Assembly: GCA_030612405.1 (NCBI GenBank) | Contig: JAUWNY010000001.1 | Location: 1 to 39,708, forward strand | Direction of reading: 5' to 3' | Length of the DNA: 39,708 nt | DNA from: Candidatus Methanophagales archaeon | GTDB lineage: Archaea > Halobacteriota > Syntropharchaeia > Alkanophagales > Methanospirareceae | Part shown: positions 10,567 to 39,668 of the stretch, piece by piece | Numbering within the stretch: position 1 is the first letter of the stretch | Layout of the letters: every line of letters begins with the position of its first letter | Position numbers and translations under genes: made by a program | The notes under the pieces: model-generated | Database searches by the model: none | Seen by the model: the letters and a program-made list of their open reading frames with translations, nothing else | Told to the model about the DNA's origin: nothing

Positions 10567-10569
10567 GCT

Positions 10570-14934: not shown

Positions 14935-14943
14935 ACCTTCGCC

Positions 14944-22931: not shown

Positions 22932-23003
22932 CCCTCTGAAACGCAGTATAGTATCATAATTTCCTTCATAGAGCAGATTGAAAGTAAGAAAAAAATAGAA
23001 AAC

Positions 23004-23014
23004 TTTATATATAT
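23004..23014 (+). promoter_or_regulatory. TATA-box-like element tttatatatat upstream of the big operon
   Basis: It is the only strong A/T box in the 241-bp gap 22932-23172. It lies about 160 nt upstream of the ATG at 23173, which implies a long purine-rich leader. Confidence 0.25.
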
Positions 23015-23172
23015 CCTCAACAATAAAAATGCAATACGTTATCTTCAGGATAAAATAAGAGTAAAGGTGTGAAAATGAAAGCAAAAAGGGTGAAGTTGGT
23101 AACGATGCCCTTTGCGTGGTGTGAATGCGTGAAGGGGGTAAAAAGGGGAGGTGATGAAAAAGGGGAATAAAA

Positions 23173-24033: not shown

Positions 24034-24034
24034 T

Positions 24035-25603
24035 ATGAAAAATAAGAAAAAAAATGCTTTTTGGGGTTGTATAATTGTGGGGATAGCTCTCGTAGGCGGT
24101 ATAATAATGGCGGGCTGTATAAGTCCACCAGAAGAAGTTCCCAAACAAGAACTGGTGGTTGGTATAAGCACAGATGTTGATAACTGGTATTTAGATAAGT
24201 TTCCTTATGGCGATGCGAGATTCGTGTGGTCACAGGTTTACGAAACTTTAGTACGATTAGATACAGATTTGAAGATACAACCAGGATTGGCGGAATACTG
24301 GGAAACCCCAGACGATGGAAGAACATGGGTATTTCATTTAAGGAAAGGAGTTAAATTCCACGACGGAACACCATTTAATGCGACAGCAGTGGTATTTTCG
24401 TACAGCAATATATCTTTCGTTAGAAAAGTTACACTTGGGAATGTTGACCATGTAGAAGCTCTCGATGAGTACAGTGTCAAATTTGTATCAAAGCGACCTA
24501 TACCCGTATCACATTATATCACGCATGTAGCATGGCCGATTATGAGTCCTACTTGTGTGGACGGAAAAGGAGAGTTCGTGAAACCAATTGGAACAGGACC
24601 ATTCAAATTTGAAAAGCAGATTAAAGACCAGGAAGTCGTGCTTGTAAGAAATGATGATTACTGGGGAGAAGAGCCAACCTTTGAGAAACTCATTTTTAAG
24701 GTAATTCCAGAGGTGGCGACACGTGTAATGGCTTTGGAGACCAAAGAAGTGGACATGATAATGAAAGTGCCGGAATTTGAAGTCGCGAGGTTAGAAGTGG
24801 AGCCAAATATCGAAGTATATAGGAAATTGACAACCTTCACTGACTTTTTACAATTTAACTGCGAAAAAGAACCTTTTAACGACACAAAAGTGAGAAAGGC
24901 AGTGGCATACGCGGTTGATACGGAAAAACTGGTTAAAACCGTTTTAGAGGATGTTGGAGAGCCAGCAAACGGCCGTCCTTTATCCCCCGTCATGTTGTAT
25001 TCGAAACAGGACCTCAAACTGTACAAATATAATCCAGAAAAGACTAAGGAATTATTGTCGGAAGCTGGCTGGAAAGACACCGATGGTGACGGAATAGTTG
25101 ATAAAGATGGAAAGCCATTCAAGGTGTCTCTCCTGGTGGAAAGAGGTGCTTGGACACCACCCCGCTTTATTCCAATGAGTGAAGCCATTCAGGGAGCGTT
25201 AAGAAAGGGGGGTATAGATGTAGAGATGCAAGTTCTGGAACCTGGAGCAGTCATAAAACTTGAAAGAGAAGGTAACTTTGACATGATCCTGAGGACAGGA
25301 TATTTTGTATGGGGTTCCTATCCAAGACACTTCTTTCTACATTATTCTAAATGTCCATACGGTCACTACAAAAACGAAGAATACGACAGACTTGTTGATT
25401 TGGCAGATTCGACGGTAGATACAAAAGAGCAAGAAAAGCTATACCACGAATTGCAGGACATGGTCATCGAAGAAGTCCCGGCATTTTATCTGGTTCACGA
25501 AGAAAAGATTGTCGCCGCGAATTCTTACGTAAAAGGGTATACTATAACAGCCGAAGACCCCTGGCTTAATCTCAAGGGCGTTTATCTGGAGGGAAAGACA
25601 TGA
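24035..25603 (+). CDS. ABC transporter substrate-binding protein, family 5 (NikA/OppA/DppA-type), copy 1
   Basis: 522 aa. N-terminal TM segment plus lipobox-like MAGC. Family-5 signatures LAEYWETPDDGRTWVFHLRKGVKFHDGTPFNA and GTGPFKF. Confidence 0.9.
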   Translation: MKNKKKNAFWGCIIVGIALVGGIIMAGCISPPEEVPKQELVVGISTDVDNWYLDKFPYGDARFVWSQVYETLVRLDTDLKIQPGLAEYWETPDDGRTWVFHLRKGVKFHDGTPFNATAVVFSYSNISFVRKVTLGNVDHVEALDEYSVKFVSKRPIPVSHYITHVAWPIMSPTCVDGKGEFVKPIGTGPFKFEKQIKDQEVVLVRNDDYWGEEPTFEKLIFKVIPEVATRVMALETKEVDMIMKVPEFEVARLEVEPNIEVYRKLTTFTDFLQFNCEKEPFNDTKVRKAVAYAVDTEKLVKTVLEDVGEPANGRPLSPVMLYSKQDLKLYKYNPEKTKELLSEAGWKDTDGDGIVDKDGKPFKVSLLVERGAWTPPRFIPMSEAIQGALRKGGIDVEMQVLEPGAVIKLEREGNFDMILRTGYFVWGSYPRHFFLHYSKCPYGHYKNEEYDRLVDLADSTVDTKEQEKLYHELQDMVIEEVPAFYLVHEEKIVAANSYVKGYTITAEDPWLNLKGVYLEGKT

Positions 25604-25658
25604 GCAGGAAAATGATTGCTTTGGATTGAATAAAAGAAGGAATTGCGTAACGTAAAAA

Positions 25659-26519
25659 ATGGGCATAATAAAAGATACGATAAAGGAGATAGAGAATCTG
25701 GGTATAAATGCAACTCTTTCAAACGTAGTCATCACCAGAATCGGTCCGTGGACATTGAGCTATGTGAGATATGATGATGGTGAACTCGGATGCGGTTGCG
25801 CAAACAACGAAGCGGAAAGAGAAGAGATTCCAGAAGACGTATCGTTTATAGAAGACCTGCTCAATTTGAATGCTTACGATGTCATAGACAAACTGGGGAG
25901 CTTGGAGAACAGCGTATTCATAAACTCACTAAGGGCTTCAATAGCTTCTGCACTCTCTTATAGGTTAATGAATGATGGAAACGAATTGAAAAAAGAGGGA
26001 TATGATGTTGAAGCCTTCTCTGCTCCAAACACACCTCTTTTAAACCCTTCAAAATTCGTGAAAACATCGGACAAAGTAGCAATGGTTGGATTTCACATGA
26101 TGACTACACCCCTGTGTGCAGAGGTTGCAAAGGAGGTGCATGTTACCGAGCTCATGGATTTGAAGCAGCTATTGCTTATAGATTTCAACGCTGATGATGA
26201 ATCTAACATAAAAATATTTCCTGCGGATAAGAGTAAGGAAGTTCTAAGTGGCGCTGATGTTGTTTACATCACTGGTGAGACCGTAGTGAATGGCACATTA
26301 AATGACCTTCTCGAGTTCTCCAAAAATGCCAGGACCAGAATAATTTATGGTCCCACTTCGGCTTTTTATCCAAAGGTGCTTTTTGAACGAGGTGTGGACG
26401 TTTCTTTGCCGATAATCTTCCCAAATACACCTGATTTTCGGAGACGATTCGCACTAAGCAGGGGTTATTGGTATTCTATGAGGGATGTAAAACAGATGTT
26501 AATAAAAAGGAGGGGGTAA
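25659..26519 (+). CDS. DUF4213/DUF364 family protein, copy 2 (tandem duplicate)
   Basis: 286 aa. It aligns gap-free with copy 1, with about 52 mismatches by manual count. Confidence 0.7.
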   Translation: MGIIKDTIKEIENLGINATLSNVVITRIGPWTLSYVRYDDGELGCGCANNEAEREEIPEDVSFIEDLLNLNAYDVIDKLGSLENSVFINSLRASIASALSYRLMNDGNELKKEGYDVEAFSAPNTPLLNPSKFVKTSDKVAMVGFHMMTTPLCAEVAKEVHVTELMDLKQLLLIDFNADDESNIKIFPADKSKEVLSGADVVYITGETVVNGTLNDLLEFSKNARTRIIYGPTSAFYPKVLFERGVDVSLPIIFPNTPDFRRRFALSRGYWYSMRDVKQMLIKRRG

Positions 26520-26520
26520 A

Positions 26521-28074
26521 ATGGAAAAGAAGAAAAAAATTGCGTTGTTGGTTTGTATAGTTGCGGGGGTGGCAATTGCAGTAGCTGGCTGTATAAGCCC
26601 ACCAGAAGAAGTTTCGAAACATGAATTAGTGGTTGGCATAAGCACAGATGTTGATAACTGGTATTTGGACAAGTTTCCCGGTGGAGACGCGAGATTTGTG
26701 TGGTCACAAGTTTACGAAACTTTAGTACGATTAGACACAGATTTGAATATACAGCCAGGATTGGCAGAATCGTGGGAAACACCTGATGATGGAAAAACAT
26801 GGATATTTCATTTAAGAAAAGGGATCAAATTCCATGATGGAACACCATTTAATTCGACCGCAGTTGTATTTTCATACAGTGATAAATCTTTCGCTAGAAG
26901 AGTTGCAATCGGGACGGTAGACCATGTAGAGGCTCTGGATGAATATAGTGTAAAATTTGTTTCAAAGCGACCTACGCCCGTACCACTTTATATCACGCAT
27001 GTGGCATGGCCCATTATGAGCCCCAGTTGTGTGGATGAGAAGGGAGAGTTCGTAAAACCAATTGGAACAGGACCGTTCAAATTTGAAAAACAGATAAAAG
27101 ACCAGGAAGTCGTGCTTGTAAGAAATGATGACTACTGGGAAGAGAAGCCAACCCTTGAGAAGGTCATTTTTAAGGTGATTCCTGAGGCGTCAACACGTGT
27201 GATGGCACTCGAAACTAAAGAAGTGGACATGATTATAAAGGTGCCGGAATTTGAAGTCTCGAGGTTAGAAAAGGAGTCAAATATCGAAGTATATAGGAAA
27301 CTAACAACCTTCACTGACTTTTTGCAATTTAACTGTGAAAAAGAGCCTTTTAATGACACAAAAGTGAGAAAGGCTGTGGCATATGCTATTGACACAGAAA
27401 AACTGGTAAACACCGTTTTAGAGGGTGTTGGAAAGCCGGCAAAAGGTCGTGCTTTTTCTCCTGTTATGTTGTATTCGAAACCAGATCTCAAACTGTATGA
27501 ATATGACCCAGAAAAGACTAAGGAATTATTATTAGAAGCTGGCTGGGAAGACACGGATGGTAACGGAATAGTGGACAGAGATGGAAAGCCGTTCAGGGTG
27601 ACTCTTTTGGTGGAAAGAGGCGCTTGGGCACCACGCTGGATTCCAACGGCTGAAGCTATTCAAGGAGAGTTAAGAAAGGTGGGAATAGATATAGAAATAC
27701 AAGTTCTGGAAAGTGGAGCAGTTACAAAGCTTGAAAGAGAAGGTAACTTTGATATGATGCTGAGGTCAGGATATTTCGTATGGGGACCTTATCCAAGACA
27801 CTTCTTTGTGCATCATTCTAAATCTCCATACGGTCACTACAAAAACGAAGAATACGACAGATTGGTTGATTTGGCAGACTCAACGGTAGATACAAAAGAA
27901 CAAGAAAAGTTATACCACGAATTACAGGAGATGGTCGTTGAAGAAGTCCCGGCATTTTATCTGGTTCATGAAGAGAAGATTGTCGCAGCGAATTCATACG
28001 TAAAAGGATATATTATCACAGCCGAAGATCCCTGGCTCAATCTCGATGGCGTTTACATGGAGGAGAAGAAATGA
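26521..28074 (+). CDS. ABC substrate-binding protein, family 5, copy 2 (tandem duplicate of copy 1)
   Basis: 517 aa. Lipobox-like VAGC. Highly similar to 24035..25603 along its whole length. Confidence 0.9.
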   Translation: MEKKKKIALLVCIVAGVAIAVAGCISPPEEVSKHELVVGISTDVDNWYLDKFPGGDARFVWSQVYETLVRLDTDLNIQPGLAESWETPDDGKTWIFHLRKGIKFHDGTPFNSTAVVFSYSDKSFARRVAIGTVDHVEALDEYSVKFVSKRPTPVPLYITHVAWPIMSPSCVDEKGEFVKPIGTGPFKFEKQIKDQEVVLVRNDDYWEEKPTLEKVIFKVIPEASTRVMALETKEVDMIIKVPEFEVSRLEKESNIEVYRKLTTFTDFLQFNCEKEPFNDTKVRKAVAYAIDTEKLVNTVLEGVGKPAKGRAFSPVMLYSKPDLKLYEYDPEKTKELLLEAGWEDTDGNGIVDRDGKPFRVTLLVERGAWAPRWIPTAEAIQGELRKVGIDIEIQVLESGAVTKLEREGNFDMMLRSGYFVWGPYPRHFFVHHSKSPYGHYKNEEYDRLVDLADSTVDTKEQEKLYHELQEMVVEEVPAFYLVHEEKIVAANSYVKGYIITAEDPWLNLDGVYMEEKK

Positions 28075-29660
28075 ACAAACGAATAACTGCTTTGCTGATT
28101 TGTATAATTGCCGGGGTGGTCCTCGTATGCGGTATAATACTGGCTGGCTGGATAAGCCCGCCAGAAGAAGTTCCTAAAGAGCTACCTCAAGAGATAGTTA
28201 TTGGGATAGGAGAAGATATAAAAGGGTTGGAGCCTGTTTCTGGTTGCCCATGGGGAGCACCACTTCGCCCGATTTATGAAACATTGGTAGTAGAGGATGC
28301 GAATCTTAAAATTCAACCTTTGCTAGCAGAGTCATGGGACGTATCAGAAGACGGTAAAGTATGGACTTTTCACCTGAATAAAGGAATAAAATTCCACGAT
28401 GGCACTCCATTCAATGCTTCGGTGGTGAAGTTTTCTTTCGAATATAAACCCGAAGCATACCGTGCTCTTTATGCAATGCTGAAATCAATAGATGCCATAG
28501 ATGAATACACGGTTAGATTCGTTTTAAATAAGTCGTATGCACCACTATTAAGGGATGTCAGTTCAGCTCCAATAATGAGCCCAACAGCCGTAGATGAAAA
28601 CGGAGAATTCAAATCACCTGTTGGGACAGGTCCATTCAAACTCGATGAGTGGGTCAAGAGCCAAAAAATTGTGCTGGTAAAGAATGAAAATTATTGGAGA
28701 GGGGCACCAAAATTAGAAGTAGTAACCTTTAAAATAATACCTGATGCCTCCGCAAGAGCTATGGCTTTAGAAACAGGGGAAATAGACCTGACAGGTCATC
28801 GAGCGGGTAGAGGCGTATTATACGTTCCAGACATACCGAGACTGAGAGAAGAACCGGAAATAAAAGTAATTGAAGGATATACACAGCCCTGCGTGAATTG
28901 GATTCAATTCAATACAGAAAAAGAGCCGTTCAATGATTTAAAAGTGAGAAAAGCTGTTTACTATGCCATTGATACTCAAAAAATGGTCACTTTTGTAGTG
29001 GGTGAGACAGCAGCACCATTATTACAGGGACCCTTGTCAATGCCATCTACCAAACATCTATTAAACCGGGAGCTAACGTGGTATCCTTACAATCCAGAGA
29101 AAGCAAAAGAGCTATTAGCAGAAGCGGGATGGAAAGATACAGATGGAGATGGCTTTCGAGATAGAAATGGGGAACAACTAAAAGTCACGTTTGTTCTCTC
29201 TGCTCGCCATCCGGAAGTACCAAAAATCGCAGAAATAGTCCAGGCACAATTGAAAGAGATTGGAATGGATGTGGAATTACAGACAGTCGAGTATGGAGCT
29301 CAGAAAATGATGTTTAAAAAAGGACAGTATGGCATGATGATGCAATTGGGCGTTTGTGGACATGGTGACCCTTCTCTCTGGCTTAATTACTTCTTCCATT
29401 CGAAAAGGGGAGTAAATTGCGCATTCAAAAATGATACGCTAACTGCATTGATAGACAAGGTATATACAACGGTAAACGAGGATGAGCGTGTCAAGATATT
29501 CTATGATATTCAGGAAGTATTGGAAGAAAATGTCCCAGGGGTTTTTATTTATACTGATGCAAACGTTGTCGCTGTGAATGAGCGTGTTAAGAACTATGAG
29601 ATGTTTGGAGGAATACACGGGGCATATCTCAGCCTATGGAAGGTGTATATCGAGGAATAA
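28071..29660 (+). CDS. ABC substrate-binding protein, family 5, copy 3 (divergent)
   Basis: 529 aa. LAESWDVSEDGKVWTFHLNKGIKFHDGTPFNA and GTGPFKL. ATGA start/stop overlap with copy 2. The lipobox position reads LAGW instead of AGC. Confidence 0.9.
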   Translation: MNKRITALLICIIAGVVLVCGIILAGWISPPEEVPKELPQEIVIGIGEDIKGLEPVSGCPWGAPLRPIYETLVVEDANLKIQPLLAESWDVSEDGKVWTFHLNKGIKFHDGTPFNASVVKFSFEYKPEAYRALYAMLKSIDAIDEYTVRFVLNKSYAPLLRDVSSAPIMSPTAVDENGEFKSPVGTGPFKLDEWVKSQKIVLVKNENYWRGAPKLEVVTFKIIPDASARAMALETGEIDLTGHRAGRGVLYVPDIPRLREEPEIKVIEGYTQPCVNWIQFNTEKEPFNDLKVRKAVYYAIDTQKMVTFVVGETAAPLLQGPLSMPSTKHLLNRELTWYPYNPEKAKELLAEAGWKDTDGDGFRDRNGEQLKVTFVLSARHPEVPKIAEIVQAQLKEIGMDVELQTVEYGAQKMMFKKGQYGMMMQLGVCGHGDPSLWLNYFFHSKRGVNCAFKNDTLTALIDKVYTTVNEDERVKIFYDIQEVLEENVPGVFIYTDANVVAVNERVKNYEMFGGIHGAYLSLWKVYIEE

Positions 29661-29678: not shown

Positions 29679-30149
29679 ATGAAAATAACAGAAGAGGTGA
29701 AGGAAGTAATAAATAACAATATTGTCCATTTAGCGACTTCTTCAAGAGATGGTAACCCAAACGTGGTTCCAGTAGGTCTTTGCAGAGCAATCAGCGACCA
29801 TGAACTGCTGATTGTAGATGTGTTTTTCAAAAAGACGAGAAAAAACATGGAAGAGAATCCCCGGGTTGCAATTGCCGTTGAGGCACTGGAAGAACTGAAA
29901 GCATATCAGATTAAAGGGAAAGCAAAGATTTTCGCTCAGGGTGAATTATACGATAAAGCGGTTGAAATAATGGGAGAACAAAACGAAGTGCGAGAGAAAA
30001 GGATTTCGGTACTGAGAGAAAAAAGACCTGAGATGGCAGAGAGGTTTGAAAAACTTGTTGCAAGTCATCATAAATTGAGACCGAAAGCGGTTGTGCTGGT
30101 AGATGTGGAGGAAATATATTCGACAATGCGTGGGGTGGGGGGCAAATAA
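29679..30149 (+). CDS. Pyridoxamine 5'-phosphate oxidase-like split-barrel flavin-binding protein
   Basis: 156 aa. VHLATSSRDGNPNVVPVG...LLIVDVFFKKTRKNMEENPRVAIAV is the typical PNPOx-like/FMN-binding split-barrel pattern. Confidence 0.7.
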   Translation: MKITEEVKEVINNNIVHLATSSRDGNPNVVPVGLCRAISDHELLIVDVFFKKTRKNMEENPRVAIAVEALEELKAYQIKGKAKIFAQGELYDKAVEIMGEQNEVREKRISVLREKRPEMAERFEKLVASHHKLRPKAVVLVDVEEIYSTMRGVGGK

Positions 30150-30151
30150 AA

Positions 30152-31219
30152 ATGGAATTTGAAGAAGTATTGAAAAATGCAGAGGAAAATGAAATAACAA
30201 AGGAAGAAGCACTGTATCTTTTTAAAGAAACAGGCAGATATGACAAGGCATTGAAACTGTTTGAAGTTGCAAGCAGGGTACGGGATGACGAAATTGGGAA
30301 TGTGTTTAAGCTGGATGGCTTTATAGGTTTAATTACGCATTGCACTGTGGATCCACCATGCAGATACTGCCATAGTTCAAGCAATATTAAATCTGGTTTT
30401 GGACTCGAGAATGTTCTAACCATTGATGAGATCGTTGAAGGTGCCAGATTGATAGAGGAAACAGGAATAAGCATGACAGAGCTCGGTGGCGGAACGACAG
30501 TAGGAAACAGCGGAGAAAAAGTTATTGAAGCCGTTAAAGCAGTTAAAAGAGCAACTGACCTCGATATTTGGGTAAACGTTGGTCCAGCGCTTTCTGAAGA
30601 CACGTTAAAGGAACTAAAGAACGTAGGAGGTGTAGATGTAACAAGTTCTTTCGAAGTTAACCCGCTAAATGAAGAGTTATTTAGAAAAGTAAAACCAGGA
30701 GATGACTTGGATGCAAGAAAAAAACTTGCTAACATGATAAACGATACAGGATTAGGATTAAACAGTGTACTAATGAGTGGGTTAGGAGAATCTTATGAGG
30801 ACCGCGTAGATCACATGTTTTACCTGAAACAGTTTGAAAATTTCAAGTATTTCCTGTGCACTTGGTTCCATCCAGCTCCTGGAACTCCGATGGCTAACTA
30901 TCCATTAACTTCGCCATTAGAGGCGGCAAAAACTGCTGCAATCGCACGCTTGATTTTTCGAGATATTGACATCCATATTAGCGGATACGAACACATTCCA
31001 CTTTGGATAATGGCTGGAGTCAACAGAGTCGTTCATGCTGGTGCATCTGTACACAGAGTAAGGGATGGTGCTGGATGGCATACAATAGGTGCAGAAGTAA
31101 AACACATCAATGATAGATTAGACTTTCTCAATTTACTTCCAACAACCGTAAGATTCATTACTGGGGCTGGAATGGAAGTTGAACCTGAAATTGAGAGGAG
31201 GTGGATAAATGAAGTTTGA
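30152..31219 (+). CDS. Radical SAM enzyme, BioB/HydE/PylB/HcgA-like, with a CX5CX2C cluster motif (RS1)
   Basis: 355 aa. HCTVDPPCRYCHSS (C64, C70, C73). ELGGGTT about 40 residues downstream. The N-terminal ITKEEALYLF helix is typical of this branch. Confidence 0.8.
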   Translation: MEFEEVLKNAEENEITKEEALYLFKETGRYDKALKLFEVASRVRDDEIGNVFKLDGFIGLITHCTVDPPCRYCHSSSNIKSGFGLENVLTIDEIVEGARLIEETGISMTELGGGTTVGNSGEKVIEAVKAVKRATDLDIWVNVGPALSEDTLKELKNVGGVDVTSSFEVNPLNEELFRKVKPGDDLDARKKLANMINDTGLGLNSVLMSGLGESYEDRVDHMFYLKQFENFKYFLCTWFHPAPGTPMANYPLTSPLEAAKTAAIARLIFRDIDIHISGYEHIPLWIMAGVNRVVHAGASVHRVRDGAGWHTIGAEVKHINDRLDFLNLLPTTVRFITGAGMEVEPEIERRWINEV

Positions 31220-32246
31220 AGAACTATTGGCTGATGCAAGAGAGAGGGAAATAACTAGGGAAGAGGTGCTGTTCCTCTTTGAAGGGGCAAACGATTGGGT
31301 AAAAGTTTCCCAACTGCTGAGTACAGCCAGTTACGTGCGAGACAAAAATGTTGGAAGGCTCTTTAAGCTGAAAGCCTTTATTCTATCCACTAACAAGGGA
31401 TGCAGGACAAATCCGCCATGCAGATACTGCGGGCAGTCAAGCGAAAAAGCTAAGTTTTTCACTAATGTAGCAACCCCAGAAGAGGTAGCGGAGTCAGCAA
31501 AAATTGCCGAAGAAATTGGCTTCAAAGGTGTTCAGTGTGGTGGTGGATGCTCCGGCAATAAAGGAGCAGAAGCAGTAGAAGATACCAGGATCGTCAAATC
31601 AGCAACAAACCTCGATGTCTTTGTCAACTACGGTGTAGATATGTCCGATGAAAATATCCAAAAACTAAAAGAACTCGACATTGGAAGTATTGGATGCTCG
31701 CTCGAAACAATAAACGAAGAGACATTCAAAAAAATCAAGCCAGGGGATAGTATAGAAGAGAGAAAAAAGGTCGCGCAGTTGATAGACAAACATGGCGTAG
31801 GTTTGGCAAGTGGTATAATGATAAACATTGGAGAATCTTATCAGGACAGAGTGAACCACATATTTTATCTTAAAAACTTTGAGAACCTGAAGCTGATCTA
31901 CATCTCGGGTTTTTTTCCAATACCTGGAACACCGCTGGAAAATCACCCTTCTGCGACATCAATAGACATTGCCAAAACCATGGCAATAGTGAGGCTCACT
32001 CACAGAAACACAGACCTTGACGGGGCTTTCGGAAGGGATGACCAGCTACAGCTCTGGATAATGGCAGGAGCAAGCCACAGGCTAATACACGGAATTTTTG
32101 AACCGAAAAATAAAATATTTTCCCATAAGTTTAGAGGCAAAGTTCAAAAGATCGGAGAAGATTTTGCGTTCATGAACGTGCTTCCGATTTATGTAAACAT
32201 GATAGAAGAAACAGGACTTAAGGCGGATATAAGGGGGGGTGCGTAA
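31209..32246 (+). CDS. Radical SAM enzyme, paralog of RS1, with a CX5CX2C motif (RS2)
   Basis: 345 aa. GCRTNPPCRYCGQSS (C65, C71, C74). VQCGGGCSG. It overlaps RS1 by 11 nt. Confidence 0.8.
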   Translation: MKFEELLADAREREITREEVLFLFEGANDWVKVSQLLSTASYVRDKNVGRLFKLKAFILSTNKGCRTNPPCRYCGQSSEKAKFFTNVATPEEVAESAKIAEEIGFKGVQCGGGCSGNKGAEAVEDTRIVKSATNLDVFVNYGVDMSDENIQKLKELDIGSIGCSLETINEETFKKIKPGDSIEERKKVAQLIDKHGVGLASGIMINIGESYQDRVNHIFYLKNFENLKLIYISGFFPIPGTPLENHPSATSIDIAKTMAIVRLTHRNTDLDGAFGRDDQLQLWIMAGASHRLIHGIFEPKNKIFSHKFRGKVQKIGEDFAFMNVLPIYVNMIEETGLKADIRGGA

Positions 32247-32248: not shown

Positions 32249-33805
32249 ATGGTATCAAGAAAAGTGACAATTGGACTGGTAGTAATTGGCATAATAGTGT
32301 TGGGCGTCTTAATAGCAGGTTGTTTAAAGCAGGAAGAAGCTCCGAAGCGAGAACTCACAATTGGTGTAAGGGGATGGGCAGGACCATCTGATATAATATC
32401 AGCGATGGGTGGCAGTGCTGATCATCTGGTCTTCGAAACGCTTGTCATGATGGATCAAAATAAGGAGTTTAAGCCGCTATTGGCTGAATCTTGGGACATT
32501 TCCGATGATGGGAAAACATACACCTTCCATTTAAGGGATAAAGTGAAATTCCACGATGGAACTCCACTAACAGCAAATGATGTCAAATTTTCGATTAACC
32601 ACTTCAAATATCCCCCACTAATATCTGTTATAGAGGACATACAGGTTACAGATGATCATACGGTGAAATTTATTCTGAAAAGACCTTCCCCCCAGTTTCT
32701 CTTTGAGTTACACTTTGGTGGTGCGATTATAAAGCCCACTGAATATGAAAATGGCGTGGTGACAAATGCAGTAGGAACAGGTTCATTTAGACTCGGGGAT
32801 CATGCTAAAGATCAGTATTTTACTGTCATTAAAAATGAAAACTACTGGGGTGGCAATGTGAAACTCGACAAAGTAACTTTCAAAGTAATACCCTCCCCTC
32901 ACACGAGGGTAATGGCACTCGAAACCGGCGAAATAGATATGACTGGGACCGATGCAGGAAGTCACATTCCAACCGATGCAATTTCAGGATTAAAAAATAT
33001 TCCTGACCTTGAACTAATGAAATCTGAGAAGACAGGGTTCAGAATTAATGTTGTCGCTTTCAATTGCCTTAAGTCACCGTTTAATGATTTGCGTGTAAGA
33101 AAAGCGGCTTGCTATGCAATTGACAAAAATGCAATAAATGTGATTCTTGGAGATGGAGGCAGAGTTGTTGATGGACCTGTCTTTCCTGAAACTGAGTGGT
33201 ACAATCCTACAATTAAGGGTTATCCATACGATTTAGAGAAAGCCAAAAAACTATTAGCCGAAGCAGGATGGGAGGACACGGATGGCGACGGAATCTTAGA
33301 GAAGGATGGAAAGCCCTTTAAGGTCTCTTTCGTTATATCTCAAGTAAGCCCGCTTTGGTCTAATATCGCAGAGGTGATACAAGCGCAATTGAAAAGGGTG
33401 GGCATAGATGTGAAAATACAGGTGTTGGAGTCAGGAGCACATTTTGCAGCTCTGAGCAGGGGCAGTTTTGATACGACGATCAAGGTGGATACAGGGACGC
33501 CAAGGATACCTCCCGACTTTTCACATACCTATCATTCCATCTCCAGAGCAGGTGGGTGGGGTGCAAAATTAATCGAAAACGAAACTCTCGACCGCTTGAT
33601 CAATCAGCATCTTTCCACTCTCGATCATGGAAAGCAACTTGAACTTGCTTATGAGATACAAGAGGTCATCAATGAAAACAGACCTGTCGCACTCTACATC
33701 GAAGACTATCGCATAATAGCGATGAACAAAAAAGTCCAGGGCTTTGAGCCCATGCCAGGATGGAGTTCGCTCCGCTATCTCTGGACGGTGAATATTGAGG
33801 ACTAA
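32249..33805 (+). CDS. ABC substrate-binding protein, family 5, copy 4 (divergent)
   Basis: 518 aa. Lipobox-like IAGC. LAESWDISDDGKTYTFHLRDKVKFHDGTPLTA and GTGSFRL. Confidence 0.9.
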   Translation: MVSRKVTIGLVVIGIIVLGVLIAGCLKQEEAPKRELTIGVRGWAGPSDIISAMGGSADHLVFETLVMMDQNKEFKPLLAESWDISDDGKTYTFHLRDKVKFHDGTPLTANDVKFSINHFKYPPLISVIEDIQVTDDHTVKFILKRPSPQFLFELHFGGAIIKPTEYENGVVTNAVGTGSFRLGDHAKDQYFTVIKNENYWGGNVKLDKVTFKVIPSPHTRVMALETGEIDMTGTDAGSHIPTDAISGLKNIPDLELMKSEKTGFRINVVAFNCLKSPFNDLRVRKAACYAIDKNAINVILGDGGRVVDGPVFPETEWYNPTIKGYPYDLEKAKKLLAEAGWEDTDGDGILEKDGKPFKVSFVISQVSPLWSNIAEVIQAQLKRVGIDVKIQVLESGAHFAALSRGSFDTTIKVDTGTPRIPPDFSHTYHSISRAGGWGAKLIENETLDRLINQHLSTLDHGKQLELAYEIQEVINENRPVALYIEDYRIIAMNKKVQGFEPMPGWSSLRYLWTVNIED

Positions 33806-33807: not shown

Positions 33808-34824
33808 ATGGACAAGATTATATACAGGATGCCCGAAGCGGATTTTGGACTTATAGGTGAAATAGCAAAAGGAAACGAAAAAGCGAATATCCTATTTGCT
33901 GCAGCAGACTTAGAAATTTTTGATTCGCTCACCCACCCAAAAACAGCAGACCAGGTCTCAGAGGAAATCAAGACCGACCCGTACTTGACTGAGAAGTTCT
34001 TGAATGCACTGGTAGCCCTGAATCTTATCCACAAAATAGATAATCGATACTCGAATACCAAACTTGCAGAGACGTTTCTTGTAAGAAAAAGCCCTTTTTA
34101 TCAGGGCACTTTATTTGAGATGAAGAAGAGAGGATTAACAGATTGGCAAAGAATAAGTGATGCCCTGAAGAACGGTGGCATTAAAATTAAAGCAGGAACA
34201 GAAAATAAGAGCATCATTGACAGGACTTTTATTGTAGGACATGCTGAAATAGCCATCACAGGAGCTATGCAAAGAGCGGTAGATGCTGTGTCATCACTTC
34301 CAGAATTTAAAGGAGCAAAGAAGCTTCTCGACCTTGGAGGAGGTCATGGGCTGTATTCTATTGCCTTCCATCAATTGAAGCCAGACCTCGAAGTTGTTTT
34401 ATTTGATTTGCCTCACGTTACAGAAATTGCAAAAGAATATCTTGAGCAGCATGGAACGCAAGGCAAGATAAACATTATCGCTGCTGATTTCACTAAGGAC
34501 GATATTGGCAATGGCTATGACGTTATTTTCGTATCTGATGTGACAATAACAGGTATCCTAAAAAAGGTATATGATGCTCTGAATGAGAATGGTGTTTTGA
34601 TATATCGACGATGGACAATTAACGATGATAGAACATCACCTTTAACCTCTGTTTTATTTGATTTCATGCTGGCAATGAGGAGGAGTGAGCACCGGGTATA
34701 CACATTGGGAGAATACATCCGTCTTTTAGAAGCCACCGGATTCTCTATCACACGAATTTTAGACCTCTCCTCTCCACAAGACCCAACAAAAATCATCGTT
34801 GCAAAGAAGAAGGAGAGATGCTGA
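33808..34824 (+). CDS. Class I SAM-dependent methyltransferase of the small-molecule O-methyltransferase family (winged-helix dimerisation domain + Rossmann domain)
   Basis: 338 aa. SAM motif I LLDLGGGHGLYSIAF, acidic loop VLFDLPHV, and the N-terminal ~100-aa helical domain typical of the COMT/CrtF/BchU-like family. Confidence 0.8.
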   Translation: MDKIIYRMPEADFGLIGEIAKGNEKANILFAAADLEIFDSLTHPKTADQVSEEIKTDPYLTEKFLNALVALNLIHKIDNRYSNTKLAETFLVRKSPFYQGTLFEMKKRGLTDWQRISDALKNGGIKIKAGTENKSIIDRTFIVGHAEIAITGAMQRAVDAVSSLPEFKGAKKLLDLGGGHGLYSIAFHQLKPDLEVVLFDLPHVTEIAKEYLEQHGTQGKINIIAADFTKDDIGNGYDVIFVSDVTITGILKKVYDALNENGVLIYRRWTINDDRTSPLTSVLFDFMLAMRRSEHRVYTLGEYIRLLEATGFSITRILDLSSPQDPTKIIVAKKKERC

Positions 34825-35756
34825 AATATATATTAAAACGGCTTCTATTGGTTTTTGTAGTGGTCCTTGGTGTAACAGTGGTTACTTTTTCTGCAATGCA
34901 GTCCGCTCCTGGCGACCCTGCAGAGATGATTGCGGTAGCCAGGTATGGCGAGGACTTGACACAAGAGGAAATAGAATGGGTAAGGGTAACAGAGGGCTTA
35001 GACGCTCCAGTGTATATTCAATACCTAGGATGGCTGGAGCACGTTTTACGCCTGGATCTGGGTAAGTCACTGATAACCTATGAAGATGTCTTAGAAGAGA
35101 TACTGACCAGATTCCCGGCAACCCTGGTGTTGACAATCTCAAGTTTAATTTTATCTCTATTGATAGCGCTACCTATTGGAATAATCAGTGCCGTCAGAAA
35201 AAATACTATTGTTGATAATGCGTGCATGACCGGCGCTTTGCTTGGGGTGTCCATGCCCAACTTCTGGCTGGGATTGCTTTTAATCTGGTTATTTGCTCTA
35301 TCTCTTGGATTGCTTCCCAGTTTTGGCTACGGCAGCATCAAACATCTTATTCTTCCCACGATAACCTTAGGCACATCAATGGCTGCTATCACAACTCGCC
35401 TTACTCGTTCGAGCATGCTGGATGTGCTAAACCAGGATTACATAGTAACGGCAAAAGCAAAAGGATTGGATGAGAAAACAATACTTTTAAAGCATGCGTT
35501 GAAAAATGCTATGCTACCCGTAATTACGTTTGTGGGGTTGCAGTTGGGCTTTTTACTTGGAGGAGCTGTTATTGTTGAGACAATATTCGCATGGCCCGGA
35601 ATTGGAAGATTATTGGTGGACTCCATATATGCCAGGGATTTTGCGTTAATTCAAGGTTGTGTCTTATTTATTGCTGTTATTTTCGCATTAGCCAACCTGG
35701 CAGTAGATATCCTCTATGCCTACTTAGACCCGAGAATAAGGTACGAGAAAAAATGA
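34818..35756 (+). CDS. ABC transporter permease (DppB/OppB/NikB-type)
   Basis: 312 aa. N-terminal MLKYILKRLL signature of this family. EAA-like loop YIVTAKAKGLDEKTILLKHALKNA. Confidence 0.9.
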   Translation: MLKYILKRLLLVFVVVLGVTVVTFSAMQSAPGDPAEMIAVARYGEDLTQEEIEWVRVTEGLDAPVYIQYLGWLEHVLRLDLGKSLITYEDVLEEILTRFPATLVLTISSLILSLLIALPIGIISAVRKNTIVDNACMTGALLGVSMPNFWLGLLLIWLFALSLGLLPSFGYGSIKHLILPTITLGTSMAAITTRLTRSSMLDVLNQDYIVTAKAKGLDEKTILLKHALKNAMLPVITFVGLQLGFLLGGAVIVETIFAWPGIGRLLVDSIYARDFALIQGCVLFIAVIFALANLAVDILYAYLDPRIRYEKK

Positions 35757-36610
35757 ACGAAACGTGGATAGCACTTAAGGAACTCGGAGAAAACAGGATG
35801 GCTGCAGTAGGGATAGTAATCATCATCATTTTAGTATTTGTTGCGTTTTTCGCCCCTTTCCTTGCACCCCATAACCCTTTAGAACAAAATCTGGAAAAAC
35901 GGCTGCTCGCACCCAATAGCGAATACCCTTTTGGCACTGATGAACTGGGAAGGGGCATATTCTCAAGAGTCCTGTATGGGACGAGAATATCCTTAGAAAT
36001 TGGCGTTATAGTAGTGGGAATAACAGCCTTAGTTGGCACAATCCTTGGGGGTATATCTGGCTACTACGGTGGAATAGTGGATGAGATTATAATGAGGTCG
36101 GTGGATATAGTGCTTGCTTTTCCAAGCATAATTCTCGCTTTGGTGATTGCAGGACTTTTAGGACCCGGCCTTTTCAATGTGATACTTGCCCTTGCCGTGA
36201 CGCATTGGCCTGCATACACAAGACTTGTGAGGGGGATGGCACTCTCCGTAAAGGAAAAAGAATTTGTTGAAGCGGCAAGAGCGTTAAGAGCCTCAAACTT
36301 CTATATTATGCGTCGTCATATCTTGCCAAATTGTATAAGTCCTGTTATTGTGCTTGCAACTCTTGGTATTGCCCATACGATAATTTTTGCAGCAGCTCTC
36401 AGTTTCTTAGGCTTGGGCATTCAACCTCCTACACCTGAGTGGGGATCAATGCTTAAATCAGGCATCCCTTATTTGCGTAGTGCACCTTTTTTAACCTTTT
36501 TCCCAGGCATCATGATAATGATTACCGTGCTTGCTTTTAATTTTTTAGGTGATGGATTAAGAGATACGTTAGATCCAAGGGCAAAGGAAATGATAATGAT
36601 GAGGAAATGA
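35753..36610 (+). CDS. ABC transporter permease (DppC/OppC/NikC-type)
   Basis: The start is moved to the ATG at 35753 (MNETWIALKEL...), which overlaps the upstream stop as ATGA. 285 aa. EAA-like FVEAARALRASNFYIMRRHILPN. Confidence 0.85.
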   Translation: MNETWIALKELGENRMAAVGIVIIIILVFVAFFAPFLAPHNPLEQNLEKRLLAPNSEYPFGTDELGRGIFSRVLYGTRISLEIGVIVVGITALVGTILGGISGYYGGIVDEIIMRSVDIVLAFPSIILALVIAGLLGPGLFNVILALAVTHWPAYTRLVRGMALSVKEKEFVEAARALRASNFYIMRRHILPNCISPVIVLATLGIAHTIIFAAALSFLGLGIQPPTPEWGSMLKSGIPYLRSAPFLTFFPGIMIMITVLAFNFLGDGLRDTLDPRAKEMIMMRK

Positions 36611-37560
36611 CTTTATTGAAAATAGAAGACCTGGGGGTTTATTTCAATGCGAGGGGAAGAATTGTAAAAGCAAACAATGGCGTTGATTTAGAGATAGAGG
36701 AAAATGAGATTTTAGGCTTAATAGGGGAGACTGGCTGTGGGAAATCAATCCTTGGAAGGGCGATAATAGGGCTGCTTTCAGAAAATGTAGAAATTAAGGG
36801 AAAAATCATTTACCGGAGAGAAAATTTATTGACGCTTTCTGAAGACAAAATGAGGCAAATTAGAGGTAAAGAGATTGGAATGATGCTCCAGAATCCGTCT
36901 ACCTCACTGAATCCCGTGTTAACTGTTGGAGAGCAGATAGCAGAAGTTTACCGCTATCACGAGGGCATTGGAAAAGAAGAAGCGAGAAAGAAAGCGGCGG
37001 AGACGTTCAAATTGGTTGGCATAGACCCAGAAAGGATGGATGAATATCCACATCAATTTAGCGGTGGGATGAAGCAGCGAGTTATGATTGCCATTGGATT
37101 AGCACTAAATCCCCGAATTTTAATAGCAGATGAACCAACCACAGGCTTGGATTACTCAATGAAAAAAAAGATTGTAGATTTGATGTCTGAGTTAGTCAGA
37201 AGCAGGAACATGAGTATGCTGCTAATAACCCATGACCTGGAAGTGGCGAAAAGAATGTGTGACAGAATTGCAGTAATGTATGCAAGCGAACTGTTGGAAA
37301 TTGCCCCTGTTGAGAAAATTTTATCTGAGCCCAAGCACCCTTACACGCAAGATCTGCTGGACTCACTTCCACGTAGAGGCTTAAAGCCAATACCGGGTGC
37401 AAGCCCCAGCCTCACTTCACTCCCCGCAGGGTGTAGATTCCATCCGAGGTGCAGATATAAAAGCGATGAGTGTTCAGAAAAACATCCAGAGATGATAGAG
37501 ATAGAGGCTAAAAACCATGTAAGGTGCTTCCTATATAAAAATGACGAGAATAAAGGTTGA
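36607..37560 (+). CDS. ABC transporter ATP-binding protein (DppD/OppD/NikD-type)
   Basis: 317 aa. Walker A GETGCGKS, signature FSGGMKQR, Walker B ILIADEPT. C-terminal Cys-rich extension CRFHPRCRYKSDEC. Confidence 0.9.
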   Translation: MTLLKIEDLGVYFNARGRIVKANNGVDLEIEENEILGLIGETGCGKSILGRAIIGLLSENVEIKGKIIYRRENLLTLSEDKMRQIRGKEIGMMLQNPSTSLNPVLTVGEQIAEVYRYHEGIGKEEARKKAAETFKLVGIDPERMDEYPHQFSGGMKQRVMIAIGLALNPRILIADEPTTGLDYSMKKKIVDLMSELVRSRNMSMLLITHDLEVAKRMCDRIAVMYASELLEIAPVEKILSEPKHPYTQDLLDSLPRRGLKPIPGASPSLTSLPAGCRFHPRCRYKSDECSEKHPEMIEIEAKNHVRCFLYKNDENKG

Positions 37561-38239
37561 GAACCTGAAAAAATATTTCTATTCAGGAATATTCAGGAAG
37601 AAAGTGATAAAGGCGGTTGATGGTGTGAGTTTTGAGATAAAGGAAGGAAAAACTTTGGGTTTGGTTGGTGAGAGCGGCTGCGGGAAAACAACTGTTGGGA
37701 GGACAATTTCAAGACTTATAAATCCTACAGAGGGGAAAATAATCTTCGGTGGTGAAGACATTACGAGCCTGAATGGCCGCGAACTAAAAAAATTGGGAAG
37801 GGAGATGCAGGTGATATTCCAGAATCCCGAGTCATCTCTGAATCCGAGGATGAGAATCTATGACAGTATTGCTGAACCCCTAAGGATTCATAAGGTCTGT
37901 AATAAAAAAGAGGAAAAAGAGAGGATTTATGAGTTAATCGAAACGGTTAATTTAAATGAAGAGCTTCTATTCAGGTATCCTCATGAGTTAAGTGGCGGGC
38001 AAATTCAGAGAGTTGTGATAGCAAGAATTTTGAGTTTGAATCCAAAATTTATTATTGCAGATGAGCCCACTTCTATGCTGGATGTCTCAGTCCAGGCACA
38101 AATTCTCAATTTGATGAAGGATTTGCAGAAAAAATATGGGATAAGTTACCTGTTTATTTCCCACGACTTAGAAGTAGTAGAGTGGATGAGTGATGAAATT
38201 GCTATAATGCATAAAGGAAAGATTGTGGAGAGGAAATAA
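37541..38239 (+). CDS. ABC transporter ATP-binding protein (DppF/OppF/NikE-type, short form)
   Basis: 232 aa. Walker A GESGCGKTT, signature LSGGQIQR, Walker B FIIADEPT. Confidence 0.9.
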   Translation: MTRIKVENLKKYFYSGIFRKKVIKAVDGVSFEIKEGKTLGLVGESGCGKTTVGRTISRLINPTEGKIIFGGEDITSLNGRELKKLGREMQVIFQNPESSLNPRMRIYDSIAEPLRIHKVCNKKEEKERIYELIETVNLNEELLFRYPHELSGGQIQRVVIARILSLNPKFIIADEPTSMLDVSVQAQILNLMKDLQKKYGISYLFISHDLEVVEWMSDEIAIMHKGKIVERK

Positions 38240-38306: not shown

Positions 38307-39668
38307 ATGAACCTAAAAGAAGCCACCAGGATATTGGTTTTAGACACCATTCACGGAGCGGAAATAATTGCAGAAGAGCTAAAGGAACTTGGAAAACAAG
38401 CGGAGGTGTTCGACCCATACCATCAGACCTTTACTAAAGCGTTGGATTACGATCTGGTTATCGCACCGGTTCACCTAAATCCAAACTTCGAGGTTGTAAA
38501 ACGGGCTTTAACGATGGAGATACCTTTTATGAGCCATCACAAAGCGATAAAAGAAATTGCACGTTTGAAAAACCTGTTCAGCGATACAAAGGTGGTGGAA
38601 GTAACGGGGACGGTGGGGAAGACGGCGGTCTGCGAACTAATCTGTCAGCTGCTGAAAAACAATAATGCGAAGGTGCTTTCTCATACCAGTTCCGTTACAA
38701 GATTCCAATCGGCAGGGGAAGAGGTGCAATTCCCCAGAATCGGCGGCGCACCTGCGAACGTATTAAAAGTGATGCGCATAGCGAAAGAAAAGAATTTGAA
38801 GGCGGAGATTGCAGTATTTGAAATTTCGCTTGGTTTAACGGGAATCGGCGATGTAGGCGTAATAACGAGTTTGGAAGCAGATTACCGGATTGCCGGTGGC
38901 ACAAAAGACGCTTCTGTTGCGAAAATCGCCTCGATACAGAATTACGCAGACGAAATAGAAGGTAGAAACAGAAAAAGCGCCGTGATAGTTCTTCCAGATA
39001 GTTTCGCGGAAATGCCGGAAAAACGAAAAAATGAACTGAAAGGGTTCAGGTTCAATACGAACTTCTTTGGCGCCACGGCAAAGGCAAAGAACCTGTGGTT
39101 AGACGATACCGAGCACAAGGTCTTTTTCGACGGGCTGAAAACCGTAAATGGTGATTCCGTAAGTGGCGGGATGAAATTCCATTTTGAAGCTGGTTTCTAC
39201 GGGGACTATTACAGGAACAGTTTAGAAGCGTCGTTTTGCACGGTTTTGAGTCTTGGCATTCCACCAGAAAGGGTCAATACAGGCGACATTTCCGCAGTGC
39301 GCGGCAGATTGAAGGTTGAGAACCGAAAAGGGCGGTTTTTGATTGATAATTCCAATTCAGGCACAAAATTGACGTTCCTCGATGTGATAACGGAAATGGC
39401 GCGGCGGTATTCTGATAAGATGATTCTGATTGTTGGCGTGGAGTCGGAATATGTGTGTGAAGGTGTGAACGAGGAAGAACTGAAAGAAGTGGTAGCGAGT
39501 GCAGCAAGAGATTTCGTTGAGATAATAATCGTGGGTGATGAGTTCAAGGATAAAATCGAAGGTAAGACGGTGTTTTTTTCTGATACGCTGGATGCGGCGT
39601 TGGAGAAGGCGGTCAGCGATTCAGAAGAAGGTTCTGTGATTATCTCTAACGTGAAGACGTGGCGGTGA
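38307..39668 (+). CDS. cfbE: Mur-ligase-family protein, probable coenzyme F430 synthetase (CfbE-like)
   Basis: 453 aa. Rossmann-like N-domain, Mur-ligase P-loop GTVGKT (nt 38607-38624), and a three-domain length. In archaea without a (pseudo)murein context, the known Mur-ligase homolog is CfbE. The symbol is given on family and context, not on remembered sequence identity. Confidence 0.5.
   Translation: MNLKEATRILVLDTIHGAEIIAEELKELGKQAEVFDPYHQTFTKALDYDLVIAPVHLNPNFEVVKRALTMEIPFMSHHKAIKEIARLKNLFSDTKVVEVTGTVGKTAVCELICQLLKNNNAKVLSHTSSVTRFQSAGEEVQFPRIGGAPANVLKVMRIAKEKNLKAEIAVFEISLGLTGIGDVGVITSLEADYRIAGGTKDASVAKIASIQNYADEIEGRNRKSAVIVLPDSFAEMPEKRKNELKGFRFNTNFFGATAKAKNLWLDDTEHKVFFDGLKTVNGDSVSGGMKFHFEAGFYGDYYRNSLEASFCTVLSLGIPPERVNTGDISAVRGRLKVENRKGRFLIDNSNSGTKLTFLDVITEMARRYSDKMILIVGVESEYVCEGVNEEELKEVVASAARDFVEIIIVGDEFKDKIEGKTVFFSDTLDAALEKAVSDSEEGSVIISNVKTWR

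Follow-up and report, generated by a model that had tools for sequence, protein, structure and literature searches.

HcgA-like radical SAM enzymes in nickel-linked importer operons of archaea and bacteria: candidates for nickelophore synthesis

A 39,708-nucleotide stretch of a Candidatus Methanophagales archaeon (contig JAUWNY010000001.1, positions 1 to 39,708; hereafter the window) carries two overlapping radical S-adenosylmethionine (SAM) genes, RS1 and RS2, inside an operon for a NikABCDE-type importer. Judged by sequence, their products represent an uncharacterised sister family of HcgA, with a nickel-linked genomic context that is conserved across archaea and bacteria. RS1 and RS2 are almost certainly functional radical SAM enzymes that are HcgA-like without being HcgA, and their family very probably acts in the acquisition of nickel or of a nickel chelate. 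Their chemistry is a more tentative matter: in our favoured reading, to which we give a probability of roughly 0.45, RS1 and RS2 synthesise a nickelophore in the form of a small heterocyclic ligand.

The two genes and their principal elements are as follows.

30152..31219, + strand: RS1, CX5CX2C radical SAM enzyme of the HcgA superclade, 355 aa
31209..32246, + strand: RS2, CX5CX2C radical SAM enzyme of the HcgA superclade, 345 aa
30341..30370, + strand: RS1 cluster motif C64-x5-C70-x2-C73, CTVDPPCRYC
31401..31430, + strand: RS2 cluster motif C65-x5-C71-x2-C74, CRTNPPCRYC
31197..31203, + strand: Shine-Dalgarno-like GGAGGTG within the 3' end of RS1, putative ribosome-binding site of RS2

Re-examination places both open reading frames (ORFs), and their overlap of 11 nt (31209-31219), exactly where an earlier note on this DNA had put them. 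GGAGGTG ends 5 nt before the RS2 ATG, and its position inside the end of RS1 fits coupled translation of the two genes. The proteins are 41% identical. Each contains a single CX5CX2C, and CX3CX2C is absent throughout both sequences, as the note had reported. The motif is a family trait rather than chance, since C-x3-P-x-C-x-[YF]-C occurs in 157 of the 160 family members collected; two of the three remaining members are short sequences, and none of the three has CX3CX2C. In HMMER alignments the RS2 motif falls on the HydE cluster motif with a two-residue insertion (CRTNPPCRYC against CRKN--CLYC), and the RS1 motif aligns in the same manner on that of PylB. The note's link to HcgA presupposed that the three cysteines ligate the SAM cluster, and this alignment with the cluster cysteines of HydE and PylB suggests that they do. 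Each protein would hold a SAM-cleaving [4Fe-4S] cluster by way of a widened loop, C-x3-P-P-C-R-Y-C, and we infer enzymatic activity, SAM cleavage included, for both. The remaining features of the BioB/HydE-like layout that the note had described are also found: an N-terminal EIT(K/R)EE(A/V)L helix, a GGG motif about 38 residues past the third motif cysteine and a length of about 350 aa.

When 18 or 55 family members are aligned, no cysteines other than the three of the motif are invariant. An extra CGGGC in RS2, which the note had singled out as a possible source of auxiliary-cluster ligands, is therefore no conserved auxiliary-cluster site, and we rejected that proposal: C110, at a position that we take to match a BioB auxiliary-cluster ligand, varies across the family, and C114 is confined to the RS2 type. 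Three proteins of another CX5CX2C subclade (P0062, P0069 and P0072) have additional cysteines just before the motif, in the form CCITPC-x-T-D-P-P-C-x-Y-C, which may ligate a second cluster or bind metal.

Pfam Radical_SAM (PF04055) matches RS1 with 47.4 bits and RS2 with 63.3 bits (gathering threshold 29.5), and the BATS domain is matched by both just under threshold. An AlphaFold2 model of RS2, built on the 55-sequence alignment, reached a predicted local distance difference test score (pLDDT) of 94.1 and a predicted template-modelling score (pTM) of 0.93. Foldseek superimposes this model on PylB, HydE and BioB with TM scores of 0.78-0.82, and the modelled fold is the full (beta/alpha)8 barrel of the small-substrate branch of the superfamily. 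The best NCBIfam model for both proteins, by a wide margin, is TIGR03957 (HmdB/HcgA), on which RS1 scores 188.5 bits and RS2 229.5 bits (cut-off 320.9). The models for BioB (TIGR00433; 85 and 104 bits, cut-off 225), PylB (TIGR03910; 81 and 69 bits, cut-off 348.2) and HydE (TIGR03956; 28 and 47 bits, cut-off 254.6) follow. Among solved structures, the best sequence match of RS2 is HydE (E = 6e-17, 22% identity).

The family is rare and so far metagenome-only. An exhaustive HMMER search over 1.84 billion representative proteins returned only 28 matches at E <= 1e-30 and 126 at E <= 1e-10; the better ones mostly carry CX5CX2C, and BioB-like CX3CX2C proteins start at about E = 1e-17. A true HcgA representative (P0066; 559.6 bits on TIGR03957) aligns with RS2 over 256 residues at 37% identity and with RS1 over 293 residues at 33%, about 80 C-terminal residues being left unaligned. 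Neighbour-joining trees with 100 bootstraps unite the CX5CX2C proteins in one clade against a BioB-like outgroup (100/100) and recover an HcgA subclade (99/100) with RS1 and RS2 outside it; the boundaries between RS1-type and RS2-type groups are poorly resolved. By these sequence comparisons, RS1 and RS2 sit in sister clades of HcgA within a CX5CX2C superclade. The note had called the pair HcgA-like enzymes recruited to another pathway, and a phylogeny of the kind that it proposed agrees with the below-cut-off match to TIGR03957 in setting them close to HcgA and not nested within it. In agreement with the note, Pfam and NCBIfam scans of the window ORFs revealed neither hcg nor hmd genes; the Pfam-annotated gene lists of related loci contain no hmd or hcgB-G, and none of the 18 loci from a scan of genome contigs, 11 of which are family members, is a true HcgA locus.

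To our knowledge, HcgA is the sole characterised member of the superclade. RS1 and RS2 share with it the CX5CX2C loop with proline at position 5, the length and the BioB-like barrel, and the product of HcgA is a metal-ligating heterocycle derived from a small metabolite. They differ from it in failing the curated cut-off, in their clade placement and in their context, which is nickel importers, not hydrogenase maturation, with no hmd or hcgB-G nearby. HydE has a TM score of about 0.8 to the RS2 model and acts on a small metal-bound ligand, but its motif is CX3CX2C and no hyd genes lie near RS1 or RS2. BioB and PylB have the same fold, a BATS-like C-terminal region and an N-terminal helix before the cluster loop; both, however, are CX3CX2C enzymes, and the BioB auxiliary-cluster ligands are missing from RS1 and RS2. 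HcgA, itself a CX5CX2C enzyme, suffices by itself to produce the pyridinol that goes into the FeGP cofactor, starting from a small metabolite of <3 kDa (PMC10100467), and a CX5CX2C 'megacluster' is listed in RadicalSAM.org (PMC9477430).

Metal-chelate importers enclose the RS genes in every locus with enough flanking DNA, amounting to about 20 independent loci from archaea and bacteria. The transporter-linked pathway that the note had proposed is thus kept across domains, in a context that points to nickel. The hosts are metagenome-assembled genomes (MAGs) of Methanosarcinales, Methanophagales (the ANME-1 lineage of anaerobic methanotrophs), other Methanobacteriota, Aerophobetes, Dehalococcoidales, Omnitrophota and Elusimicrobia; most loci come from MAG contigs, whose taxonomic labels may carry binning errors. 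Three importer kinds are represented (NikABCDE-type, Peripla_BP_2/FecCD-type and energy-coupling factor (ECF)-type), often together with TonB-dependent receptors. Because the radical SAM enzyme is constant and the importer kind varies, we place the family's role in acquiring a nickel chelate, rather than with one transporter or with an archaeal cofactor.

The NikABCDE type comprises the window and loci L008, L014 and L005-7. L014 (a Dehalococcoidales MAG, 3732-14015) has the order OMT-DUF364-NikA-PNPOx-RS2-NikA-NikBCDE, where OMT is an O-methyltransferase, and is nearly collinear with the window, with protein identities of 48-74%; this likeness could stem from gene transfer across domains or from mis-binning of the contig. 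In L005-7, RS2-nikA-nikBC comes after larC-cbiMNQO-larE-larB; in L005 (4529-9766), the full nickel-pincer cofactor set of larC, larE and larB, with cbiM, a PDGLE-domain gene, cbiQ and an ATP-binding cassette (ABC) ATPase gene interspersed, immediately precedes the RS2-type gene. Peripla_BP_2, FecCD and ATPase genes accompany the RS genes in L009, L010, L011, L012, L013/L028, L015, L016 and L035. A TonB receptor joins RS1 and/or RS2, Peripla_BP_2 and FecCD in L004, L017, L031, L032 and L034; an ABC ATPase is present in L004, L017, L032 and L034, and the L031 contig ends before one could show. L027 has a TonB receptor gene, then an RS1-type gene and an ArsP-family permease gene. ECF-type loci (L018, L026 and L033) place an S-component beside the RS gene, with CbiQ and ATPases following in L018 and L033. 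In L001-3, at least ten tandem Peripla_BP_2 genes flank both RS genes. The L001 cluster (1743-17895), like those of L002, L003, L010 and L015, combines Peripla_BP_2 genes of 408-427 aa with a class I methyltransferase and a 52-aa tautomerase-like ORF; the sequence ATATGAC-N13-GATCATAC, present in each L001-type binding-protein gene, is a coding repeat and not an operator. The metagenome contig scan yielded at least one locus, the distant L030, among the matches listed. In L030 (2370-10939, a high-GC human-gut metagenome contig), a FecCD-ATPase-Peripla_BP_2 importer is followed about 4.5 kb further downstream by the gene for a Radical_SAM plus BATS relative with 30% identity to RS1.

RS1-type and RS2-type genes occur together in the window, L008, L001-3, L004 and L032, in varying gene order. 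The RS2 type stands alone in L005-7, L011, L013/28, L014, L026 and L031, and the RS1 type alone in L017, L018, L027, L033 and L034. The heteromer that the note had considered possible is hence unsupported in an obligate form, given how common single-type loci are and how gene order varies where both types occur. In the latter loci, RS1 and RS2 probably either carry out distinct radical steps or perform one step on two substrates.

In the window, the genes around RS1 and RS2 and the upstream exporter genes are arranged as listed here.

21400..22140, + strand: ABC-2/DrrA-type exporter ATPase, first gene of the + strand array (NCBIfam TIGR01188 drrA, 305 bits)
22137..22931, + strand: ABC-2 exporter permease (Pfam ABC2_membrane), with a 4-nt overlap with the ATPase gene
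23003..23052, + strand: TATA-like CTTTATATATAT, then inverted repeat TATCCTCAA-N23-TTCAGGATA, read from the sequence of the 241-nt gap
23173..24033, + strand: DUF364 protein, copy a (Pfam PF04016, 75 bits)
24035..25603, + strand: NikA-like family-5 substrate-binding protein 1 (NCBIfam nickel_nikA, 242 bits, cut-off 393)
25659..26519, + strand: DUF364 protein, copy b (Pfam PF04016, 77 bits; L014 orthologue 74% identical)
26521..28074, + strand: NikA-like substrate-binding protein 2 (Pfam SBP_bac_5, 322 bits; nickel_nikA, 262 bits)
28071..29660, + strand: NikA-like substrate-binding protein 3 (Pfam SBP_bac_5, 331 bits; L014 orthologue 70% identical)
29679..30149, + strand: PNPOx-like split-barrel flavoprotein (Pfam PNPOx_N, 61.7 bits; L014 orthologue 67% identical)
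32249..33805, + strand: NikA-like substrate-binding protein 4 (Pfam SBP_bac_5; orthologues follow RS2 in L005-7, L008 and L014)
33808..34824, + strand: small-molecule O-methyltransferase (Methyltransf_2 plus dimerisation domain; L014 orthologue 55% identical)
34818..35756, + strand: nickel ABC permease NikB/Opp2B (NCBIfam NF045470, 382 bits, cut-off 350)
35753..36610, + strand: nickel ABC permease NikC (NCBIfam TIGR02790, 373 bits, cut-off 358; start codon from the L036 gene call)
36607..37560, + strand: ABC ATPase, NikD/OppD-like (profile matches)
37541..38239, + strand: ABC ATPase, NikE/DppF-like (profile matches)
38307..39668, + strand: CfbE, coenzyme F430 synthase, the operon's last gene (NCBIfam NF033197, 257.3 bits, cut-off 250; Pfam CfbE_C on the identical L036 gene)

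The gaps in this order (DUF364-NikA-DUF364-NikA-NikA-PNPOx-RS1-RS2-NikA-OMT-NikBCDE-CfbE) are all <=67 nt, and the ABC-2 genes are set off from the DUF364-to-cfbE operon by the 241-nt gap with its TATA-like element. The inverted repeat, at 23012-23052, follows directly on the TATA-like box, and 23003..23052 is a candidate promoter plus operator for the DUF364-to-cfbE operon; the repeat differs from the NikR boxes of other loci. An Rfam scan of the window returned no riboswitch or other RNA family. The locus recurs in four other assemblies, ending after cfbE, and the gene that comes next to the identical cfbE in L036 is a convergent FKBP gene.

DUF364 copies a and b are 82% identical and NikA-like proteins 1 and 2 are 84% identical (23173-28074); by these sequences the DUF364-NikA two-gene unit is a recent tandem duplication, and there are hints that a DUF364 protein and the neighbouring binding protein work as a pair. 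PDB searches with DUF364 gave only weak matches (3l5o and 3npg), which hold no functional information. The best PDB relatives of NikA-like protein 4 include 5yh8 and 5yhe ('Nickel ABC transporter substrate-binding protein'), presumably Staphylococcus aureus CntA, and Escherichia coli NikA. The four binding proteins are NikA/CntA-like, with putative nickel specificity. The PNPOx-like protein has weak matches to F420-dependent PPOX families and to HutZ.

Several independent signals tie the loci to nickel. A nikR gene adjoins the RS loci in L011, L018, L026, L033 and L034 (Pfam NikR_C at about 110 bits where scanned). A search for GTGTTAC-N13/14-GTAACAC, the consensus NikR operator of delta-proteobacteria (PMC545781), with <=2 mismatches allowed, found NikR-box-like sequences at five independent loci (L011, L013/L028, L018, L033 and L034), each of them 10-52 nt ahead of nikR or of the operon's first gene (in L033, ahead of a divergent cbiM). 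The same search in several other loci found none, even at three mismatches. Further nickel links are larBCE, cbiMNQO, the Nik permeases and cfbE, and NikB and NikC of the window both pass the NCBI nickel-permease cut-offs. The importer types, nikR genes and NikR-box-like sites of the RS loci recall the NikABCDE, NiuBDE and Nik/CbiMNQO systems, but no radical SAM gene has been described in the Nik, Niu or ECF nickel importers. NiuBDE is a nickel importer of the Peripla_BP_2/FecCD/ATPase kind (PMC5140060). We considered the Peripla_BP_2 partners of the RS genes as orthologues of NiuB/CeuE and set this aside: the matches are distant (E about 1e-5), and the best PDB matches are uncharacterised binding proteins and HI_1472.

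The mechanism that we favour for the window begins with RS1 and RS2, seen as paralogous enzymes of the cytoplasm: by way of the 5'-deoxyadenosyl radical, they would convert a common metabolite into a small N/O-heterocyclic ligand for nickel. The PNPOx-like flavoprotein, the O-methyltransferase and the DUF364 proteins would tailor this core, and the ABC-2 pump encoded upstream would export the product. The four NikA-like proteins and NikBCDE would recapture the nickel complex, whose nickel would then be fed to CfbE/F430 and other nickel enzymes. The small-molecule nature of substrate and product, the binding of nickel by the product and its export are all conjectural parts of this scheme.

Biosynthesis is ranked first for several reasons. 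The one characterised relative, HcgA, makes a pyridinol ring that binds metal. The richer clusters add tailoring-type enzymes such as the O-methyltransferase, the PNPOx-like protein and DUF364, with the class I methyltransferase and tautomerase genes belonging to the same category in larger clusters. Exporters of several kinds adjoin six loci: the window, L008, L009 and L013/L028 (ABC-2, plus RND in L028), L027 (ArsP) and L035 (EamA). NikA-type binding proteins recognise chelated nickel, as Ni-(His)2 or Ni-His-thiazolidine, the thiazolidine ligand having been seen in S. aureus NikA (PMC12086673). The first characterised DUF364 enzyme, finally, works on the aminobutyrate part of SAM, cyclising methylated SAM to a methyl-azetidine carboxylate (PMC12930334).

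The opine-metallophore operons for staphylopine (cntKLMABCDFE) and pseudopaline (cntOLMI) offer a comparison, as they likewise unite enzymes, an exporter and a NikA/CntA-family importer or TonB receptor in one operon, and window proteins give secondary NCBIfam matches to the opine_bind_CntA and CntC/D/F models. The enzymes differ: those of the window are radical SAM, DUF364, PNPOx-like and O-methyltransferase proteins, and Pfam and NCBIfam scans of the operon proteins found no member of the CntL (nicotianamine-synthase-like) or CntM (opine dehydrogenase) families. A fuller version of the nickelophore reading is a good deal more speculative, and we regard it as possible but doubtful. In it, a new HcgA-like class would make a pyridinol-type or similar heterocyclic nickelophore for secretion, and NikR-controlled Nik-, Niu-like, ECF- and TonB-dependent systems would bring it back into the cell; the trait would be shared horizontally among ANME/Methanosarcinales archaea and anoxic-sediment bacteria and would gate the nickel supply for F430 in methane oxidisers.

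A number of observations weigh against nickelophore synthesis or against the nickel link beneath it. Loci L028, L031, L032, L033 and L034 consist of importer genes and one or two RS genes with no further biosynthetic gene, and the minimal loci L031, L032, L033 and L034 show no obvious exporter; such loci suit an enzyme acting on an imported compound equally well. Importers of the ECF and NikMNQO types normally need no chelator, and several paralogous binding proteins (four in the window, at least ten in L001) would seem unneeded for a single self-made ligand. The five NikR-box-like sites compare with a random expectation of 2.2, about a twofold excess only, so that they are informative by their positions and not by their count. 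The window has no nikR gene, and its two promoter regions have no NikR box even at three mismatches; its own nickel link consequently rests on NikB, NikC, CfbE and orthology. Two of the NikA-like copies score below the NikA equivalog cut-off (242 and 262 against 393 bits), and the Peripla_BP_2 proteins are not specifically NiuB-like, being only distantly related to NiuB/CeuE. The nickelophore role proposed for the RS clades is itself read from sequence and context.

The strongest competitor, which we consider unlikely while taking it seriously, reverses the direction of the chemistry: the RS enzymes would break or remodel a strong environmental or foreign ligand in the cytoplasm and so free the nickel of an imported chelate. 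The ChuW-containing operons for anaerobic heme uptake provide a precedent, in which the radical SAM enzyme ChuW/HutW is encoded beside TonB receptor, Peripla_BP_2, FecCD and ATPase genes. The RS genes are similarly nested in a metal-chelate importer, a functional analogy only, since ChuW belongs to the HemN-like class rather than to that of BioB/HcgA, its substrate is a tetrapyrrole and its metal is iron, not nickel. Importer components, of three unrelated types and often with TonB and NikR, are the only constant partners of the RS genes across the approximately 20 loci, and the minimal operons have no other enzyme or exporter. Multiple paralogous binding proteins suggest that varied ligands are scavenged, and the weak match of the PNPOx-like protein to the heme-utilisation protein HutZ speaks for the same role. 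For HydE, the best solved-structure sequence match of RS2, there are crystal structures containing a metal-cysteine complex (complex B) or thiazolidine dicarboxylates (5fep, 5ff2, 7o1o and 8qmk), and a thiazolidine forms part of the S. aureus NikA nickel ligand (PMC12086673). On the other side, general coordination chemistry makes Ni(II)-amino-acid-type complexes labile, so radical chemistry should be unneeded to open them, and the closed barrels of BioB/HydE/PylB-type enzymes take small substrates, which would argue against macrocycles. HcgA, the closest characterised relative, is biosynthetic, and the O-methyltransferase, DUF364 and exporters of the larger clusters suit biosynthesis better.

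Less probable again, by analogy with HcgA/FeGP and the Lar nickel-pincer nucleotide, is that RS1 and RS2 help to make an intracellular nickel-binding molecule or the precursor of a new organometallic nickel cofactor (of pyridinol/pyridine type), co-expressed with importers and not secreted. Homology to HcgA is consistent with such a product, as are the larC, larE and larB genes adjoining in L005-7, cfbE in the window and the many loci without an exporter; NikR control would co-express its synthesis with nickel uptake. The neighbourhoods, however, show no conserved partner enzyme able to use a cofactor, and the genes interspersed with the RS genes encode binding proteins and permeases rather than enzymes. 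The lar genes, moreover, are confined to a single locus family, if one sets aside a LarE-like fragment encoded on the other strand of L011.

The note had put forward F430 and Ni-sirohydrochlorin among its candidate substrates. A further proposal is tailoring or salvage of F430 or its precursors, for example by sulfur insertion and methylation to 17(2)-methylthio-F430. The placement of cfbE at the end of the operon, the BioB-like fold beside a methyltransferase and the presence of the family in ANME-1 (Methanophagales) MAGs would suit this, and the methylthio-F430 synthase has not yet been identified (PMC10702137). The same importer context nevertheless occurs in MAGs of Aerophobetes, Dehalococcoidales, Omnitrophota and Elusimicrobia, bacteria that do not use F430, and cfbE adjacency is limited to the window's own genome. 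There are no conserved auxiliary-cluster cysteines that could act as sulfur donor, and a closed small-substrate barrel would argue against a tetrapyrrole. We set methylthio-F430 synthesis aside in view of the bacterial distribution and the missing sulfur-donor cluster; these substrates are unlikely for a family present in bacteria that do not make F430, and F430 tailoring as a whole is very improbable. A mis-annotated biotin synthase, or another housekeeping enzyme of BioB/HydE/PylB type in a coincidental transporter neighbourhood, is the least probable reading, despite the 'biotin synthase' label that some sources give to family members and the weak BATS match, because the BioB, HydE and PylB model scores are far under their cut-offs, BioB-like proteins form the outgroup in the trees, the BioB auxiliary-cluster ligands are not conserved and the importer context recurs at about 20 independent loci in two domains.

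Nickel is the limiting metal for methanogenesis and for anaerobic methane oxidation, through F430 in methyl-coenzyme M reductase, and is also required by [NiFe]-hydrogenases, carbon monoxide dehydrogenase/acetyl-CoA synthase and Lar enzymes. Nickel importers that depend on a binding protein mostly import chelated nickel, and we know of no dedicated biosynthetic route to a ligand for a NikA/CntA-type importer other than the opine (cnt) pathway. Our literature search found no paper on a nickelophore produced by a radical SAM enzyme, on HcgA-like enzymes or HmdB homologues in connection with nickel uptake, or on NikR regulons that include radical SAM genes. If RS1 and RS2 act as proposed, they would add a new enzymatic step to nickel acquisition in archaea and bacteria, whether the ligand is made or unmade. 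The loci would give the non-HcgA CX5CX2C members their first functional context, and with it a handle on the chemistry and substrate of HcgA, as well as candidates with which to test how methane-seep communities are limited by nickel and compete for it. For DUF364 proteins, the position beside NikA-like proteins would be a second context, soon after the first enzyme of that family was characterised.

Elsewhere, in keeping with a methane-metabolising archaeal host, the window encodes methanogenesis marker 15, Hef, PAN and a phosphoglycerate mutase of archaeal type, and its nearest named relatives are Methanosarcinaceae and Methanosarcinales MAGs. The region 62-7027 encodes two MinD/CooC-like ATPases with ferredoxin domains, two NifX-like (Nitro_FeMo-Co) proteins, DUF5320 ORFs, DUF134, an Mrp/ApbC-type Fe-S carrier, the marker 15 protein and TrmO. 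A segment of L033 (15057-21059), which adjoins the nikR-ECF-RS1 operon of that locus, shares with it the ferredoxin-domain ATPases, Nitro_FeMo-Co/DUF5320 genes and TrmO. At 7612-10566, before the phosphoglycerate mutase gene, lies a gene for a single-chain, 984-aa Eco57I/MmeI-like DNA methyltransferase (Eco57I, DUF7814, MmeI_Mtase and N6_Mtase matches), which by its domains is taken to be a type IIG-like restriction-modification protein unrelated to the RS genes.

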